IMG/VR virus record: IMGVR_UViG_2703718802_000005
Source of the DNA: a virus
Lineage: Duplodnaviria; Heunggongvirae; Uroviricota; Caudoviricetes
DNA: 7,660 bases
Strand: one strand, 5' to 3'
Position 1 is the first letter of the stretch; each line of letters opens with the position of its first letter. The translations under genes and the position numbers were made by a program. The notes below the pieces were generated by a model, which did not search any database, was not told the DNA's origin, and saw nothing but the letters and a program-made list of their open reading frames with translations. Of the stretch, positions 1 through 7,493 are shown in pieces.

Positions 1-1439
1 CTGGAGATTCAGGGGGCCAGTCTACTGCATTACGTGCTAATACAAAGCTCTTGAGAATCTTTAGAGAACAAAGAAACGCGGATGAACCAGAGCTTATTAT
101 TAAAGAATCTACATTTCCCCAACTCACTAATTCTGATCTTACAGATGCGCTTAATATTATGTGCCATTTATACAATGGTTTTGATGAAGGAAATATCAGC
201 CTGAAAACCTGGGGGGCGATGCAAGAAGTACAGACAACATCAACCTTTATCAGCCCGAGACCGGGAACCTGGAAAACAACTGAACTGGCAAAGTTTGTAG
301 AAGATGATTTATTTAATATTCTGACTGAATGTAAAGCCTGGAGTTCACCAATTCCAGCAGAAGCCCGACAGGGGTATTGCCACCAGGATCTCTCTGTTGC
401 ACACTCCTGCACCTCAGAGTTACTGGCACACCTGAATCAATACCATGAAATTGATGAATCAGCAATACTTGCCAGAGTTATTAGTATGACGATTAACGGA
501 TTCTACAAGAAAAAAAATACAGACCTTACGGAATGGCTATCCCCTTTTAAAGAGGAACATAAAATATTCAGGGATTGTCCGGAGCAAAATACCGGGGATG
601 TAATCAGACTGAAAGAGCAACTGTTGAAAACAGGACGTACAGAATTCGTGAATAATTTGTGTCAAGTCGCCAACTGGTATGAAATTAAGTCAATATACGA
701 TGAATACGTCCGTCTTTATGCCAATGAAATCATTAGTTGGTTCAACAAAACCATGGAGTATTTTAAACCAACAGATTTTATCCGATATACATGGAAATTC
801 GCAACAGTTACTCCGGATAAAGATACAGAAACTGGGCATACAACTGCATGGGAAAAGGATTATTGCCAGATAACCATACAACGTGATGAACTTCTGAGGT
901 TGATTCACACTAATACCCTTCAGGATGCAGTAATTTATCTTTGTCATTGTCTGCAGGAGAAATACAAGAAATCATCCCAGAATGAGACAGAGTTTCCAGG
1001 AATAAAACCTCCGGCATCAGAGAGTGAAATTAATATAACAGATAATTTTGAATTTCATTCTCTTATGGAGCTCAGTAAAGATAATGAGAAGCGGCTGGAA
1101 ACATTTCAAAAATGGTATGAAAAAAATAAAGTTTTGTTAGAAAGTCATAAACAAAAACGAACAGAGAAGATTGACGTTGCCGTACGACTTGTAGGGCTGA
1201 AAGCCTATGATCTGCATGAAGGGATTCCGGATAGGCCAAAACGAAAAGTTAAAGATGGCATAAATGAAGACATCAAAGCCGATACCAGTTTACGCCTGTC
1301 AAAGACAAATATAAGTGATACGTCGCTAAACCGTTATCGCCGCACTGTTAAGGAGATTATCAATAACGAAATCGACGTATTCCTGTTGGAACAGAAGAAA
1401 AAAATAAAAGATTTCCCTACAGTGAAGATAGAGATGTGA
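1..1439 (+). CDS. Hypothetical protein, C-terminal part (462+ codons); probably 5'-truncated by the window edge
   Basis: Track ORF 51..1439. The same frame (codon phase from nt 3) has no stop back to nt 1, and the first start-like codon at 51 is TTG with no Shine-Dalgarno, so the gene most likely begins upstream of the window. AT-rich (roughly 35-40% GC by eye) with a Lys/Glu/Asn-rich product; no catalytic motif recognised. Stop TGA at 1437-1439 is followed by an intrinsic terminator. Confidence 0.6.
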   Translation, partial: GDSGGQSTALRANTKLLRIFREQRNADEPELIIKESTFPQLTNSDLTDALNIMCHLYNGFDEGNISLKTWGAMQEVQTTSTFISPRPGTWKTTELAKFVEDDLFNILTECKAWSSPIPAEARQGYCHQDLSVAHSCTSELLAHLNQYHEIDESAILARVISMTINGFYKKKNTDLTEWLSPFKEEHKIFRDCPEQNTGDVIRLKEQLLKTGRTEFVNNLCQVANWYEIKSIYDEYVRLYANEIISWFNKTMEYFKPTDFIRYTWKFATVTPDKDTETGHTTAWEKDYCQITIQRDELLRLIHTNTLQDAVIYLCHCLQEKYKKSSQNETEFPGIKPPASESEINITDNFEFHSLMELSKDNEKRLETFQKWYEKNKVLLESHKQKRTEKIDVAVRLVGLKAYDLHEGIPDRPKRKVKDGINEDIKADTSLRLSKTNISDTSLNRYRRTVKEIINNEIDVFLLEQKKKIKDFPTVKIEM

Positions 1440-2159
1440 TTCGACCTTTATGGGGAAAATGCCTGACCGGACAGTAACTCCCTGAGGGGATAACAGCCCG
1501 GTTATCCCCTTTTCGTTATGCCTCGGTATACCGGAGTTCCAGGGACACGAGACAATCGGCAAATTATGCGGCTTTTCCATTAACAGATTCGGCCACAAGA
1601 ACAACACCATGTTTGTTTCGATCAGGATGTTCACTCCAGATTTCTGATTCAGGGATACTTCCCCATCATAGCAGATCCGATCACCATCAAACGGATAATA
1701 CCGTGCGGAATTTGTATCTAAGATAAACACCTTAAGATTCGTTGAACGACGCGCTATATGCTGCCAGAGGGCTTTACCTCCTTCATATTGCTCGTTATCA
1801 CTTAATAGTATAACGCCTGCTTTTGTGGCTATTGTTTCATAAACAAACGTAGCAAGGCCAACATCACGTACAGCGCCATCGACAACAATCCCTTCAATCT
1901 GAGCAACGTCCTGTTCTTCCCAGAATTTCCGGGCAAACACCCCTTCAAGCTGTGAACGACGCTGAAGCTCCAGAGTGGCAACAACCTTATGGCGAATATC
2001 ACCATCAATAACAGAAGGTGCAGCTTCGATTACCGCAGCGAACGGAGTCTTTGGATCCCAGATGATCTGGTAAAGCACGCCCTGAATAGTTACTCCATCC
2101 AGTATCGAAAAACGGCGGGCTACAGTAGCAGGGGAGTAAGACATTGGAATGACAGCCAT
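1326..2159 (-). CDS. Hypothetical protein (277 codons as encoded); C-terminal ~40-75 codons doubtful
   Basis: Track ORF; ATG at 2157-2159 with only a weak upstream AGG. Body is moderate-GC. The 3' end overlaps the plus-strand ORF by 114 nt and reads through its terminator hairpin, translating to a low-complexity Phe/Leu-rich tail (EIFYFFLLFQQEY), which looks like non-native coding. An R-x-x-G-x-A motif (RDVGLA) could hint at a GNAT-like fold; this is a weak guess. Confidence 0.45.
   Translation of the reverse strand: MAVIPMSYSPATVARRFSILDGVTIQGVLYQIIWDPKTPFAAVIEAAPSVIDGDIRHKVVATLELQRRSQLEGVFARKFWEEQDVAQIEGIVVDGAVRDVGLATFVYETIATKAGVILLSDNEQYEGGKALWQHIARRSTNLKVFILDTNSARYYPFDGDRICYDGEVSLNQKSGVNILIETNMVLFLWPNLLMEKPHNLPIVSCPWNSGIPRHNEKGITGLLSPQGVTVRSGIFPIKVESHLYLHCREIFYFFLLFQQEYVDFVIDNLLNSAAITV
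1486..1517 (+). terminator. Rho-independent terminator downstream of the 1..1439 ORF
   Basis: Perfect 9-bp stem GGGGATAAC (1486-1494) / GTTATCCCC (1501-1509) with 6-nt loop AGCCCG, followed by TTTTCGTT. On the minus strand the same hairpin is not followed by a T-run, so it is unidirectional. Confidence 0.8.
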
Positions 2160-2686
2160 TTTATGGCCTAAAATTTGAAAACATTAGTATCAATACTGAC
2201 CTCATCAGTCTGAGCATATATTGATAAAGTTTTTATGTTTACACTCAATAAATACCTTGCCAAACAACTAATATCGATGTCTACATTGCCATTCGACATG
2301 CTTACAATTTTTGTCAACAAGAAAGTGAATTTATATCAACGGTAAGAAGTAAACACGAGGACACCAAAACTAAATGTACACACTTTTGTGCTTTGTGTCC
2401 CCTGTGTGTACCCAAATGACAAACTGCAAGGAAATCTAGGCACACACTTATCTAACTTATTGATTTAAATGGTGCGATAATAGGAACAATACACATAGGC
2501 GATAAGCTTTGTTTTTGTTGCCTTTTTTATTGTTCATTTTTTATAGATACCCCCAAAAGTACCCCCATATCTTTTTCCGCCCCTGAAATTTGGTTGTTAT
2601 TCATACAGCATATCAGGCGGTAACGCTCTCCCTTTAACCCACTTATTGTATGATAGTGCTATCCCACAATAAGGAATCAGCCAGCC

Positions 2687-3046
2687 ATGAGAATGACCAG
2701 CCGTAAAAAAGAGATACTCAGTTATTTTGAGCCGGATAACCTAGAATGGGTGACAGGTGAGATTGGTGCGCCGCCGTTCGATGTGTCGGGCGTGGCCTAC
2801 CTGCTTCATGGCATGGTGTCGTTCGATAAGCGCCACCAGCTCGAATCAACCCGGCGCACACTGGAAAGCATGGTTGCTGGTGGACTGCTTGAGCGGGTGA
2901 CAGTGTATGAATCGCGTCAGGTACGGCGCGGCGGTGAGACTAACGCAACGGTCGTGCGCTACGGTTTACCCGGTCACTGCGCTGTTATGCGCGATACTGG
3001 CGGCGCTGATAACGCAATATCAGGCGAATACATGCGGGTCAGTTAA
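2687..3046 (+). CDS. Hypothetical small protein (119 aa), possible winged-helix DNA-binding protein
   Basis: Track ORF; ATG 2687 preceded by AAGGA about 12 nt upstream. Clearly more GC-rich than its flanks by eye. Segment TRRTLESMVAGGLLERVTVYE resembles a recognition helix plus wing (pattern-based guess). Stop TAA at 3044-3046 overlaps the convergent gene by 8 nt. Confidence 0.45.
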   Translation: MRMTSRKKEILSYFEPDNLEWVTGEIGAPPFDVSGVAYLLHGMVSFDKRHQLESTRRTLESMVAGGLLERVTVYESRQVRRGGETNATVVRYGLPGHCAVMRDTGGADNAISGEYMRVS

Positions 3047-3581
3047 GAGCCTGCAATCTGTCGTTAATGTTGTTCAGGTCGTAAACCCGGCGTTCAATAT
3101 CCAGCATCAGGAAATCGTGGATCTCGGCCTGTTCAGGATTATCAGACTCTCTGGCCTGTAAGAGCAATTCATTGTAACCATGCAAACCACCCGAATTTTC
3201 CGCCGGGGTAGTGCCCTTCCCGCGCAAACAGCTAACAGGCTGGATACTGGTATCATGTGTTTGCTTCTCCAGCACAACAAGGCAATCCCACCAGTCGCCA
3301 AAGTCATACGTGTAAACCAGCTTGTCACCCTCATTCTGGAGCGCCGCCCATAGTGGCGTGATTGCCGCGTTACCCATGCTTTCATCCTCACCCCATACGC
3401 GATACTCGCTACCTGGATCACCTTTACGCCCTTTCTCGAACATATACAGGTGTTCGTCATTCCAGCCAAAAGCTAACTGGATCACGGCATGAAGTTTACT
3501 AAAGGGGATTTGCTCTGGAACCAGCACACGCCGCCATATTGGTGGTTTGCTGTCTCGGATGGTTATCTTTATCTGGTACAT
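3039..3581 (-). CDS. pRiA4b ORF-3-like family protein (PF07929-like), 180 aa
   Basis: Track ORF; ATG at 3579-3581. N-terminal IKITIRDSKPPIWRRVLVP and central YTYDFGDWWD match the IWRR / YDFGDxW signature I recall for the plasmid pRiA4b ORF-3-like family. No strong Shine-Dalgarno; lies 43 bp downstream of the toxin-candidate gene on the same strand. Confidence 0.75.
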   Translation of the reverse strand: MYQIKITIRDSKPPIWRRVLVPEQIPFSKLHAVIQLAFGWNDEHLYMFEKGRKGDPGSEYRVWGEDESMGNAAITPLWAALQNEGDKLVYTYDFGDWWDCLVVLEKQTHDTSIQPVSCLRGKGTTPAENSGGLHGYNELLLQARESDNPEQAEIHDFLMLDIERRVYDLNNINDRLQALN

Positions 3582-3624
3582 GCGTCGTGAACCAATAGTG
3601 TACGTTTAGGTGGGTATTTTTCTG

Positions 3625-4059
3625 CTACTGACCAGGATAGAGCTGATGTGCCGGGTCAAGCCAGACAATATGGAATACATTACCGATGAAAAATCCATGT
3701 ATGCGACCATATTCATTGCGCGATATGGCAAATTGATAAGGTGTATAACTCTGAAACTGTTCATTCAAATGCTGAAATCCCTTAGGTTCAGATGTAGTTT
3801 GCCAATCAATCGGATGTGACTTCAACGAACCACCGCGATCGGTGGTGAACTCTCGTTCAGTCATAGTGGAAAGGTCTTTGAGGCGGTCTAACACCTTGCA
3901 AAAATAAACAGGATTCTGAGCGCTGAAAGTAAATTTCTCATGCGCCGCATCGATATACCGAAAAGAAAAGTTGATGGTCGTTATGCCTGAACCTGTTCCC
4001 CCAGGCACTATTTTTGTTTGCGAGGGTGCAATCTTCGACGCCCTGATTCTTTTCGCCAT
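3625..4059 (-). CDS. Toxin-candidate partner of the Panacea-domain antitoxin-like gene; 144 aa, fold not recognised
   Basis: Track ORF; ATG at 4057-4059 lies 2 nt after the TAA stop (4062-4064) of the upstream same-strand gene, a translationally coupled antitoxin-then-toxin layout. No family recognised by eye; notable C-terminal segment GRIHGFFIGNVFHIVWLDPAHQLY and N-terminal Gly-rich PGGTGSG. Confidence 0.6.
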   Translation of the reverse strand: MAKRIRASKIAPSQTKIVPGGTGSGITTINFSFRYIDAAHEKFTFSAQNPVYFCKVLDRLKDLSTMTEREFTTDRGGSLKSHPIDWQTTSEPKGFQHLNEQFQSYTPYQFAISRNEYGRIHGFFIGNVFHIVWLDPAHQLYPGQ

Positions 4060-4061
4060 AT

Positions 4062-4517
4062 TTAGGAAGCCATCGAACGATAAAACTCAGCCGTTACACT
4101 TTTATCAATAACATTCTTGCACGGCGCATCTGATGGAACCCCTTCACGGGCCTCCAGCCACGGCTTTTCTTGGTGCGTCATCTGCTCCAGCTCATAAGCT
4201 GTATAACCGCCAAATACCTCATAGATTTCCTTTAGATGCTTTGACACATTCGCAGGTAACTCAGGGCAGGCAATCTCTTCGTCTATTGAGCGCCATTTGT
4301 AATCTGCAAATCTGGTATACAAATCTCTGGCTACAGGGCCATGTACCCATGCTTCAAACTTGTCAGCAACCAGTTCTTCGCCATCATTCAGCGCCATGAA
4401 CCAAGCATCAGCATAGAACACCATTTTTTGCAGTTTCAGCGGCGTCATAACATCCCCATGCTCTTGAGCAAAGCAAAGCAGGTAATCCGCTACGCTGTTA
4501 AGGGTTGTAACTGCCAT
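4062..4517 (-). CDS. Panacea (DUF4065) domain protein, PanA/SocA-type antitoxin-like, 151 aa
   Basis: Track ORF 4062..4748 in frame; start placed at ATG 4515-4517 because AGGAG sits 8 nt upstream, whereas the ORF-opening ATG at 4748 has no ribosome-binding site. Product contains TPLKLQKMVFYADAWFMAL and FEAWVHGPVARDLYTRF, matching the conserved core I recall for Pfam PF13274 (DUF4065/Panacea; GepA-like 'phage-associated protein'). Confidence 0.8.
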   Translation of the reverse strand: MAVTTLNSVADYLLCFAQEHGDVMTPLKLQKMVFYADAWFMALNDGEELVADKFEAWVHGPVARDLYTRFADYKWRSIDEEIACPELPANVSKHLKEIYEVFGGYTAYELEQMTHQEKPWLEAREGVPSDAPCKNVIDKSVTAEFYRSMAS

Positions 4518-4838
4518 TATCCAATCTCCTGCCGTATGTTTTCGTCTATAACTGTCCACTACCGTTAATAATCGCATATAACCACGGGTATTGCCCATCG
4601 TAAAATGCCATTTAAAGATTCTGCGTGATGGCTCACCATCCACCGCGCAAGATACCCGGTGCGTTTGGCTGATAATCCGCAATTTGGTTGAAACCGTCCT
4701 GGAAACCTCAAGTTTGGAAACCAGCGACTTGCATCGTAGCTTTGCCATTCGGCGGTCATAGTTACTGCTATATCCCTTTATTGGCGAGACCTGCGAGAGG
4801 TTTTGTTGTTCGAATATATAAAGGTGAATAAAGGTAAT

Positions 4839-5024: not shown

Positions 5025-5250
5025 ACGTCATACCCTCTGGAAGGATGAAACACGCCCGGATTAAATTTCATTTTTCGCGGGTATAAAAAAACGATGGGGC
5101 GGGCAGTCCCGGATAGTCAGGGCTGTAGAGATTTGACTACCCCCTCCCCACTGGATTCAGGTTACTGCTATTCCGTTAAGCGCTGCTTACGGGGATAGCT
5201 GCGTTGTGATTTTGACCATTCAGGTCGCCGCTATTTCCTCACCGATTGGG

Positions 5251-5321: not shown

Positions 5322-5603
5322 CTACCTTTGCCTCTTGCCGCCATTTAACCGGAAGGCGTTACCGTTCGGTTGCGCTATCCCCATGCGGTGTTGCGTTTCG
5401 GTAACAGCTTTATGCAGGTCGCCAAATTCCTCAACCTTCACGGGCGGGCGCTTCACGTTCTCCAGACACGTTTCACGGCGGCGCTTTATCCATTCCCGAT
5501 CATCGTCCTCGCTGCATAACAGCATGACTTCCATCCATCGTGCGGCAGCTCTCCGGTATAGCCCTTTTGACTCCAGCTCTTCAGCTTTCCTGTCCCTTAT
5601 CAT
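5322..5603 (-). CDS. PerC-family transcriptional activator-like protein (93 aa)
   Basis: Track ORF; GAGG 5 nt upstream of ATG (5601-5603). Segment AEELESKGLYRRAAARWMEVM matches the conserved core I recall for PerC/Pch-family regulators (Pfam PF06069) found on enterobacterial mobile elements. The opposite-strand ORF 5206..5625 is judged spurious. Confidence 0.7.
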   Translation of the reverse strand: MIRDRKAEELESKGLYRRAAARWMEVMLLCSEDDDREWIKRRRETCLENVKRPPVKVEEFGDLHKAVTETQHRMGIAQPNGNAFRLNGGKRQR

Positions 5604-5862: not shown

Positions 5863-6318
5863 ATGGTCTTTGCAATGAGCAAATCTAATCTGGTCGCGTT
5901 CCGCATCCCATCTGAATTGCAGGATGAGTTTAATCGGTCTGTTCTCGCTTCTGGAGGGGATAAAACCTCCTGGCTTGTTGATGCGATTCGCATGAAGCTG
6001 GGACAGCCGGAAAAGTCTATTGATTCACGAATGCTTGGGCTGGTGGAGCGCATGGAAAAAGCTGCTGCGTCGCTTATTGCCGGAAAGCCGAACATCCCAC
6101 CAAAGCCATATAACGAAACGGCAGTTATAAAGATCATTGCCGATACCATCCGACAGGGATTTGATAATGGGCGTGTGATAGCTGAACGGATCAATGAAGC
6201 AGGCTATCAAACAAAAGCTGGTAAAGCGTGGGATAAAGATATTTACAGCGCGTGGAAGCGTCAGGGAAGCAATGCTGAAAAGTTAAAAGCGGTGATTGAT
6301 TGTAAGGTCAGCGTATAA
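5863..6318 (+). CDS. Hypothetical protein with N-terminal ribbon-helix-helix-like DNA-binding region (151 aa)
   Basis: Track ORF. N-terminus VAFRIPSELQDEFNRSV...KTSWLVDAIRMKL has the strand-helix-helix pattern of CopG/Arc-type RHH domains (pattern-based). Weak Shine-Dalgarno, so start is uncertain between ATG 5863 and ATG 5875. Opposite-strand ORFs 5790..6194 and 6025..6210 are judged spurious. Confidence 0.55.
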   Translation: MVFAMSKSNLVAFRIPSELQDEFNRSVLASGGDKTSWLVDAIRMKLGQPEKSIDSRMLGLVERMEKAAASLIAGKPNIPPKPYNETAVIKIIADTIRQGFDNGRVIAERINEAGYQTKAGKAWDKDIYSAWKRQGSNAEKLKAVIDCKVSV

Positions 6319-6956: not shown

Positions 6957-7142
6957 TGGTGTTTTGCTGTGGCAGTGATATCAGAAAAATCTTCCTGTTT
7001 CACATAAAGCGGATATGCGCGTACTGTAACGACCCCATCAACTGGGAGCGGATTTGAAATCCCGACCCAAGCTATGTACCAAATGCCATGTCTTGGATAT
7101 ATGATGATTGCCATTCTAAACAAAGCTAAAGGGAGGGTTGGT

Positions 7143-7493
7143 GTGAATGCTCAGGCTGTCATCATGGTTTTACTTGGTCTGATTGTCGCAAAACTATATC
7201 CAGACTGGTGGAAAGGGGTATTAGCAACTGTCGCCATCTATTTGCTTTTATCCGTCGTTAAGCGATCGTTCGTTAAGACCGTAAATCAAGCAAAACGTTT
7301 CTCATTTAAGAATTTAATAAACTATATTACTGGGCTTATTTTTTGCCTTTCAATTTTGATCGCTTCAGCTTTTTTGCCCGTATCAATAGCTAATTTTTTT
7401 GGCGCACCATATGAGGTAGGTTATCTATTCTCTGTTTTTTGTCTTGTTCTTTCCCTTCTTTACCTATGGATGAGAGCAAAGAACAAAAATTAG
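7143..7493 (+). CDS. Hypothetical multi-pass membrane protein (about 116 aa from the preferred start)
   Basis: Track ORF 7074..7493. Preferred start is in-frame GTG at 7143, preceded by GGAGG (7132-7136) with a 6-nt spacer; alternatives are ATG 7074 (no SD) and ATG 7164. AT-rich; product has about four hydrophobic helices (AVIMVLLGLIVA, VLATVAIYLLLSVV, ITGLIFCLSILIASAFL, YLFSVFCLVLSLLYLW). Stop TAG at 7491-7493. Confidence 0.5.
   Translation: MNAQAVIMVLLGLIVAKLYPDWWKGVLATVAIYLLLSVVKRSFVKTVNQAKRFSFKNLINYITGLIFCLSILIASAFLPVSIANFFGAPYEVGYLFSVFCLVLSLLYLWMRAKNKN

Follow-up and report, generated by a model that had tools for sequence, protein, structure and literature searches.

What kind of protein is encoded directly behind a Panacea-domain gene in prophage-derived DNA? 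The locus that raises this question lies in a 7,660-nt stretch of Caudoviricetes DNA (IMG/VR record IMGVR_UViG_2703718802_000005), the whole of which we refer to as the window, and the gene is a 144-amino-acid (aa) open reading frame (ORF) at positions 3625-4059 on the minus strand. A sequence-only reading of this DNA had taken the gene for the toxin partner of a Panacea antitoxin and, finding no familiar signature in it, had suggested a new toxin domain family. In our analysis, it probably encodes a RelE/HigB-like endoribonuclease toxin (PanT) belonging to a two-gene PanAT module, in which the Panacea protein (PanA) neutralizes the toxin by direct binding and which travels as the cargo of genomic islands.

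A widespread gene paired with a Panacea antitoxin

The 144-aa ORF is borne out, with a translation identical to the one quoted earlier, and it is a real gene rather than a chance ORF. One search returned 209 homologs, and when 1.84 billion cluster representatives were scanned exhaustively with HMMER, 1272 representatives of 50%-identity clusters were recovered at E<=1e-3, including 694 at E<=1e-10. The features that define the gene pair are as follows.

3625..4059, minus strand: toxin candidate (PanT), 144 aa, with a predicted RelE/HigB-like (BECR) fold; RefSeq WP_032283080.1, "hypothetical protein"
4060..4064, minus strand: junction of the two genes, with the panA stop codon TAA (4064-4062) and a 2-nt spacer followed by the toxin ATG (TAA-AT-ATG)
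4062..4517, minus strand: panA, encoding an acidic, standalone Panacea (DUF4065/SocA-like) antitoxin of 151 aa; RefSeq WP_001371753.1
4526..4530, minus strand: Shine-Dalgarno sequence AGGAG, 8 nt 5' of the panA ATG, read from the sequence

The product of panA scores 64.1 bits against Pfam PF13274 (SocA_Panacea), compared to a cut-off of 25.7, carries no extra domain and is named "Panacea domain-containing protein" in RefSeq. A longer Panacea ORF of 228 aa (start at 4748) was dropped in favor of the 151-aa form with its ATG at 4517, based on the RefSeq entry, the length of the homologs (150-152 aa) and the position of the AGGAG. The toxin gene does adjoin this Panacea-domain gene, as had been stated, with its start 2 nt past the panA stop codon. 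Only panA is preceded by a Shine-Dalgarno sequence, and the combination of a 2-nt spacer with the lack of a separate ribosome-binding site for the toxin gene suggests that toxin translation depends on that of panA. The corresponding genes of cyanobacteria overlap.

To survey this pairing, we examined 80 species-representative loci by searching their six-frame ORFs with the PanA of the window. Two of these loci begin at a contig end, leaving 78 with upstream DNA. In all 78, a PanA homolog (E 1e-9 to 1e-85) is encoded directly upstream on the same strand, abutting or overlapping the toxin start. The paired loci come from Enterobacterales, other Gammaproteobacteria, many cyanobacteria, and metagenome-assembled genomes of Chlamydiae and Chloroflexia, and the pairing is kept in Nostoc, Stutzerimonas and Yersinia despite unrelated flanks. 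The two products also differ in charge, the toxin being basic (isoelectric point, pI, 9.3) and PanA acidic (pI 4.7).

The pair further behaves as a discrete unit, delimited by the following interval.

3584..4836, no strand assigned: 1.25-kb cassette made up of panA and the toxin gene with 319 nt upstream and 41 nt downstream of them, from a blastn comparison with the E. coli ET565 island

Relative to the window, the ET565 island is collinear apart from the 1253 bp at 3584-4836, in place of which it has 116 bp (5065-5180 in the ET565 locus), and the pair is thus a self-contained cassette. No notable direct or inverted repeats flank it in the comparison of the window with ET565. The sequence AAGGTGAATAAAGG is common to both islands at the right junction of the cassette. 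GC content is 0.43-0.47 across the cassette (3400-4800) versus 0.52-0.54 in the adjoining pRiA4b region (2600-3600), a drop that is consistent with a mosaic origin.

An adjacent gene for a Panacea/DUF4065 protein, placed directly upstream with a 2-nt gap in the window and upstream of the toxin gene throughout the survey, is the arrangement of a PanAT module. Of the two parts of the earlier proposal, the assignment as toxin partner of a Panacea antitoxin is upheld by context, namely the 78/78 pairing, the contrast in pI and the discrete cassette, while the idea of a new toxin domain family finds no support. Standalone Panacea antitoxins act by direct contact with the toxin (PMC10440598), and PanA-PanT complexes have been recovered in pull-downs (PMC8832971).

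Within E. coli, DNA identical to that of the pair occurs in the chromosome of 23 out of 5426 complete genomes, and four further genomes carry alleles that are 68-73% identical. A tblastn search with the toxin yields zero matches in 50,697 phage genomes and three weak matches in plasmids. Many annotated copies in Klebsiella, Enterobacter, Proteus/Providencia and Salmonella consist of the C-terminal 61 residues (P0149, P0152, P0155, P0162 and P0163) or 89 residues (P0167 and others) alone, with one 61-aa form found on 93 contigs. Such short copies suggest that disruptions within the 5' half of this gene are frequent.

Predicted fold of the toxin

The AlphaFold2 model of the toxin, built from a 65-sequence alignment, has a mean predicted local distance difference test score (pLDDT) of 83.5, rising to ~90 over residues 30-140. 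The model contains a short strand (residues 30-32), helices at 50-63, 68-73 and 100-104, and strands at 107-111, 119-125 and 128-135. It thereby has the elements of the RelE/ParE fold: a pre-strand, helices, an antiparallel sheet and a C-terminal active-site segment. When the model is compared with known structures by Foldseek, the highest-ranked matches, though weak, are HigB, RelE and YoeB (E 0.07, probability reaching 0.91), which speaks against the earlier suggestion of a new toxin domain. The toxin very likely has a divergent form of the RelE/ParE (BECR) fold. Two elements extend this fold in the model, namely ~28 basic, disordered residues at the N-terminus and ~20 residues inserted between helices and sheet. 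A Foldseek search against viral structures gave nothing useful.

Sequence-based family searches do not show this fold directly. The Pfam search assigns no family, the RelE/ParE clan included, to the toxin, its 65 relatives or its 137 relatives, which makes it understandable that no signature was recognized by eye. There was likewise no significant profile match of the toxin to a RelE/ParE-clan family. Searches of PDB sequences with the single sequence and with the profile returned only chance matches (e.g., beta-secretase), and the sole hit in PHROGs is phrog_8366, a family of unknown function.

Two other profiles do match members of the family. The NCBIfam model NF046006 (MAG6450_fam), named for a conserved hypothetical protein of Mycoplasma agalactiae, matches residues 80-140 of the toxin with 30.3 bits (E 4.9e-7), under the curated cut-off of 40 bits. 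This model matches all 137 relatives (best E 3e-9), their scores lying under or close to that threshold. The C-terminal 75 positions of the PADLOC model for NsnC, the Menshen effector, match 50 of the 137 relatives (best E 1.4e-5) and the toxin itself at E 0.027; all other PADLOC models match at most one relative. This match to the C-terminus of NsnC is weak but recurrent. The C-terminal part of NsnC is the BECR ribonuclease (RNase) domain PB-BECR1, for which an H-R-H triad has been described and which is structurally closest to YafQ (Li et al. 2025, PMC12065111). Unlike NsnC, which combines a PIN-like with a BECR domain and works with NsnA (ParB-DUF262) and NsnB (ABC ATPase), the toxin is a single-domain protein paired with Panacea. 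It has no PIN-like domain, and no Menshen genes, NsnA and NsnB included, are found near it, its neighbors being PanA and a pRiA4b ORF-3 gene.

Relationship to PanT cluster T1

The closest described relatives are the toxins of PanT cluster T1. In the survey by Kurata et al. (2022, PMC8832971), T1 is among the top two PanT clusters in size, with 217 of 1268 predicted pairs; its toxins are all "hypothetical protein" without a domain and are spread over many phyla, including Mollicutes (Spiroplasma), cyanobacteria and enterobacteria. Table S1 of the supporting information labels the tested T1 toxins "mRNase" (PMC8832971).

One T1 pair is that of Salmonella phage vB_SemP_Emek (toxin YP_006560566.1, PanA YP_006560565.1), and both of its members are homologous to those of the window. 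The single Emek toxin sequence aligns with the profile of our family at E 4.6e-10 by hhalign, and a 23-sequence alignment of the Emek branch aligns with our family alignment (A2) with a probability of 97.9% (E 3.4e-13). The two PanA proteins are 41% identical (E 2e-26). Homology of both toxin and PanA to a listed T1 pair makes the window pair a T1-type PanAT. The proposed new domain therefore belongs to a toxin family homologous to the Emek PanT, which was already part of T1 in 2022. In a look-up of accessions, neither the toxin nor nine of its relatives is among the entries of Dataset S1 listed (Kurata 2022), and neither the toxin nor its relatives were found in the supplement of Ernits 2023. 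Because the accessions are not among the listed entries of Dataset S1, we infer formal T1 membership from sequence homology rather than reading it off.

The Emek and window pairs share a standalone PanA as the first gene, followed by a tightly spaced or overlapping gene for a toxin of ~140-160 aa, which is annotated as hypothetical and lacks any CDD or Pfam domain. The two toxins are only ~20% identical, and their branches end differently, with LY-x-H and K136/R142 in the Emek branch versus H138-x-x-Y141 and R119 in that of the window. They also differ in their relationship to MAG6450: the Emek PanT matches the whole 103-position profile, whereas the window toxin aligns with its C-terminal 60 residues only. 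A single-sequence alignment had suggested that the Emek homolog lost its catalytic residues, which would have explained its non-toxicity (see below). This idea was dropped because the Emek branch has its own set of invariant residues across 23 sequences (H100, K136, R142, D153, Y159 and H161). A comparison of the Emek-type family with HigB by hhalign gave no signal.

PanAT, the RelE/BECR fold and T1, as a predicted mRNase, have thus been described before, and the toxin family itself is without a name. Two surveys of the RelE/BECR superfamily (PMC11980606; bioRxiv 10.64898/2026.08.28.747851) make no mention of Panacea, DUF4065 or MAG6450.

Conserved residues and a candidate active site

Conservation was read from the 65 relatives and then from 137 representatives of 50%-identity clusters. 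The regions of the toxin gene that matter here are the following.

3637..3708, minus strand: codons G118-Y141, encoding the C-terminal beta-hairpin and tail GRIHGFFIGNVFHIVWLDPAHQLY, which are conserved and carry R119, D135, H138 and Y141
3814..3816, minus strand: codon of H82 in the LK-S-HPIDW motif, a candidate general base equivalent to HigB His54 / YafQ His50
3976..4059, minus strand: codons 1-28, the basic, variable N-terminal tail including PGGTGSG, predicted with low confidence (pLDDT 52-55)

Of the two elements that the sequence-only reading had singled out as conserved-looking, the C-terminal motif GRIHGFFIGNVFHIVWLDPAHQLY is indeed the most conserved part and the core of the family in the 137 representatives. 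PGGTGSG, on the other hand, sits in the variable tail, where the alignment has no consensus. This tail (residues 1-28) has a pI of 12 and a median net charge of +4 among the 137 relatives. In the C-terminal segment, W133, D135 and H138 are found in every relative and G118 and R119 in 136, while H121 is present in 119 and Y141 in 112, with a further 12 having F at the latter position. Other conserved positions are F31, S32, Y52, R59, R/K80, H82 (H in 131 of 137) and Q109.

Among characterized toxins of this fold, YafQ has an active site that includes His50 and His87. HigB cuts A-site mRNA; His54 has been proposed as its general base, Arg73 is placed at the scissile phosphate, and Asp90-Tyr91-His92 form a C-terminal cluster. 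Four of its five proposed catalytic residues are essential by mutation, and the effect of R73A is modest (PMC5027501). In the hhalign register between the toxin family and HigB, which is not significant (E 0.16-0.17), H82, R119 and H138 fall on His54, Arg73 and His92, and D135 and Y141 fall beside, not exactly on, the Asp90-Tyr91-His92 cluster. H82 is found within an H-P motif resembling the KLHPL of HigB, R119 is on the middle strand, and D135-x-x-H138-x-x-Y141 lies in the C-terminal tail. H82, R119, D135, H138 and Y141 may therefore share the active-site chemistry of HigB; since the register comes from a non-significant alignment, we put these residues forward as candidates. Compared to HigB (Proteus vulgaris, PDB 4MCT/4PX8) and YafQ, the window toxin is ~50 residues longer because of its tail and 20-residue insertion, the spacing of His and Tyr in its C-terminal tail differs, and its antitoxin is Panacea rather than HigA, RelB or DinJ.

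On this basis, we propose an endoribonuclease of the HigB/YafQ type that arrests translation. H82 would act as the general base, R119 would stabilize the scissile phosphate, and the D135-x-x-H138-x-x-Y141 segment at the C-terminus would provide an acid and positioning cluster. The substrate would most probably be ribosome-bound mRNA, cleavage of which would lead to translation arrest. The acidic, translationally coupled PanA is expected to bind the toxin directly and hold it inactive, as in type II neutralization, and superinfection exclusion, abortive infection or island stabilization are plausible roles for the pair.

Alternative readings

Several observations weigh against an endoribonuclease of this type. 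The Foldseek E-values for the toxin model all exceed 0.05, and the hhalign comparison with P. vulgaris HigB is not significant whether HigB is used alone or in a 38-sequence alignment (E 0.16-0.17), such that the residue equivalences rest on a weak alignment combined with a predicted fold. A promoter scan of the minus strand upstream of panA found no sigma-70-like site, and neither a promoter nor an operator was found there. The fold in itself does not dictate activity, as ParE toxins of the same fold poison gyrase rather than cleave RNA. Most directly, three T1 toxins have been assayed. That of Clostridium cadaveris is toxic, but its own PanA failed to neutralize it, while those of E. coli MOD1 and phage Emek are non-toxic in E. 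coli (PMC8832971). With two of three T1 toxins non-toxic and the third un-neutralized, toxicity cannot be assumed.

These assays bear on two other readings. We give limited credence to one in which the T1/MAG6450-like PanTs form a separate BECR ribonuclease branch with a catalytic layout of its own, the N-terminal tail serving as a handle for Panacea and the toxin being released on phage infection. In that layout, which seems to us a lesser possibility, the catalytic His would come from the long insertion before the sheet and be joined by the D-x-x-H-x-x-Y tail. Phage-triggered release would also explain the apparent non-toxicity of relatives in induction assays, an account that we regard as tentative at best. 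It is more doubtful still that the fold is present in a protein that does not normally act as a toxin by itself, whether it requires a phage trigger through PanA as the sensor, has a host-specific target, or is an RNA-binding or regulatory partner. The two non-toxic T1 toxins of Kurata et al., from E. coli and a Salmonella phage, speak for this, as do the alleles cut to the C-terminal 61 or 89 residues, which are common in Klebsiella, Proteus and Salmonella and imply that the gene is often dispensable. However, frequent truncation is also the typical fate of genuine toxin genes, and the retention of the candidate catalytic residues in >130 clusters, together with the 100% adjacency of PanA, is what would be expected if an active toxin needs its antidote.

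The remaining alternatives keep an active toxin with this fold and change its target. A BECR RNase that acts off the ribosome on tRNA, rRNA or free mRNA, as colicin E5/D, Ntox-type BECR proteins or, presumably, NsnC do, is unlikely in our estimation. A ParE-like poison with DNA gyrase as its target is highly improbable: RNase members of the fold outrank ParE, and ParE-type toxins are not known to be built on conserved His/Arg/His/Tyr at RNase active-site positions. The toxin family keeps H/R/H/Y at these RNase-type positions, and its T1 relatives carry the label mRNase in Kurata et al.

Genomic context

The RelE/HigB-like PanAT module that we favor is found in the window within a prophage-derived island beside paoABCD/yagU, whose genes include P22-type ejection/injection proteins, a TOPRIM-DUF927 primase, ash and PerC. 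In phage Emek, the PanAT pair follows a P22-type DNA-transfer gene, a position that it shares with the pair of the window, and lies upstream of mnt/arc. Divergent E. coli alleles occupy the outer edges of two further islands that each have PerC-family regulators, and the Yersinia and Stutzerimonas pairs are in integrase-bearing elements, that of Yersinia also having a primase. From these placements, we infer that the pair is a small cargo at the distal ends of prophage- or satellite-derived islands. Such a placement would suit a function in superinfection exclusion, in abortive infection or in stabilizing the island.

The other features of the window are listed below.

1-1439, plus strand: 3' part of a gene for a 543-aa hypothetical protein, running off the left end of the window
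1326-2159, minus strand: ORF matching phrog_7522 (E 2e-105); 198 aa in RefSeq
2687-3046, plus strand: gene for a 119-aa hypothetical protein, convergent with the pRiA4b ORF-3 gene and overlapping its 3' end by 8 nt
3039-3581, minus strand: gene of the pRiA4b ORF-3 family (143.8 bits to PF07929), separated by 43 nt from the toxin gene upstream of it
5322-5603, minus strand: PerC-family regulator (PF06069, 106 bits; also ANR-like)
5863-6318, plus strand: 151-aa ORF
7074-7493, plus strand: gene for a 139-aa predicted membrane protein, beside the injection-protein gene

There is no terminator between the toxin gene and the pRiA4b ORF-3 gene, and the latter was considered as a third component of the module. 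This was rejected: it stays in place in islands without the pair, and it is not beside the pair in other taxa. A further ~350 E. coli genomes match part of a 1.76-kb query (3039-4800) at 90-95%, the matching part being most likely the pRiA4b gene. Three different E. coli islands have a PerC-family gene no more than a few kb upstream of their PanAT pair (in addition to the window, at 10620-10907 in locus L093 and 9052-9348 in L094). Scanning the window for Rfam families and for tRNAs gave no hits.

A cyanophage PanA beside a partial toxin gene

The nearest phage PanA is that of Cylindrospermopsis raciborskii virus RM-2018a (CrV-01T, MH636380; 1483-2448), which is 46% identical to the PanA of the window. 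It is followed by an unannotated ORF, of which residues 34-98 match residues 2-65 of the toxin (hhalign E 1.9e-15); this ORF then runs into an annotated CRISPR array. The same layout, with PanA followed by a CRISPR array, is seen in phage Cr-LKS4 (1495-2383). As CrV-01T keeps PanA with the N-terminal half of the toxin alone, as judged by alignment, its PanA may be an orphan antitoxin that serves as counter-defense. If T1/MAG6450-like PanTs do form a separate branch that is released on phage infection, the PanA that cyanophages carry beside a decapitated toxin gene would be an instance of such orphan-antitoxin counter-defense.

Implications

No new category of system is opened by this locus. 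What the analysis provides is a structural and mechanistic label for a "hypothetical" protein and, by homology, for cluster T1. Should the toxin prove to be an RNase as predicted, PanAT modules of the T1 type would fall into the RelE/HigB class of toxins that target translation. In the P22-like prophages and phage satellites of E. coli, Klebsiella, Salmonella and cyanobacteria, they would then be candidate cargo for superinfection exclusion or abortive infection.
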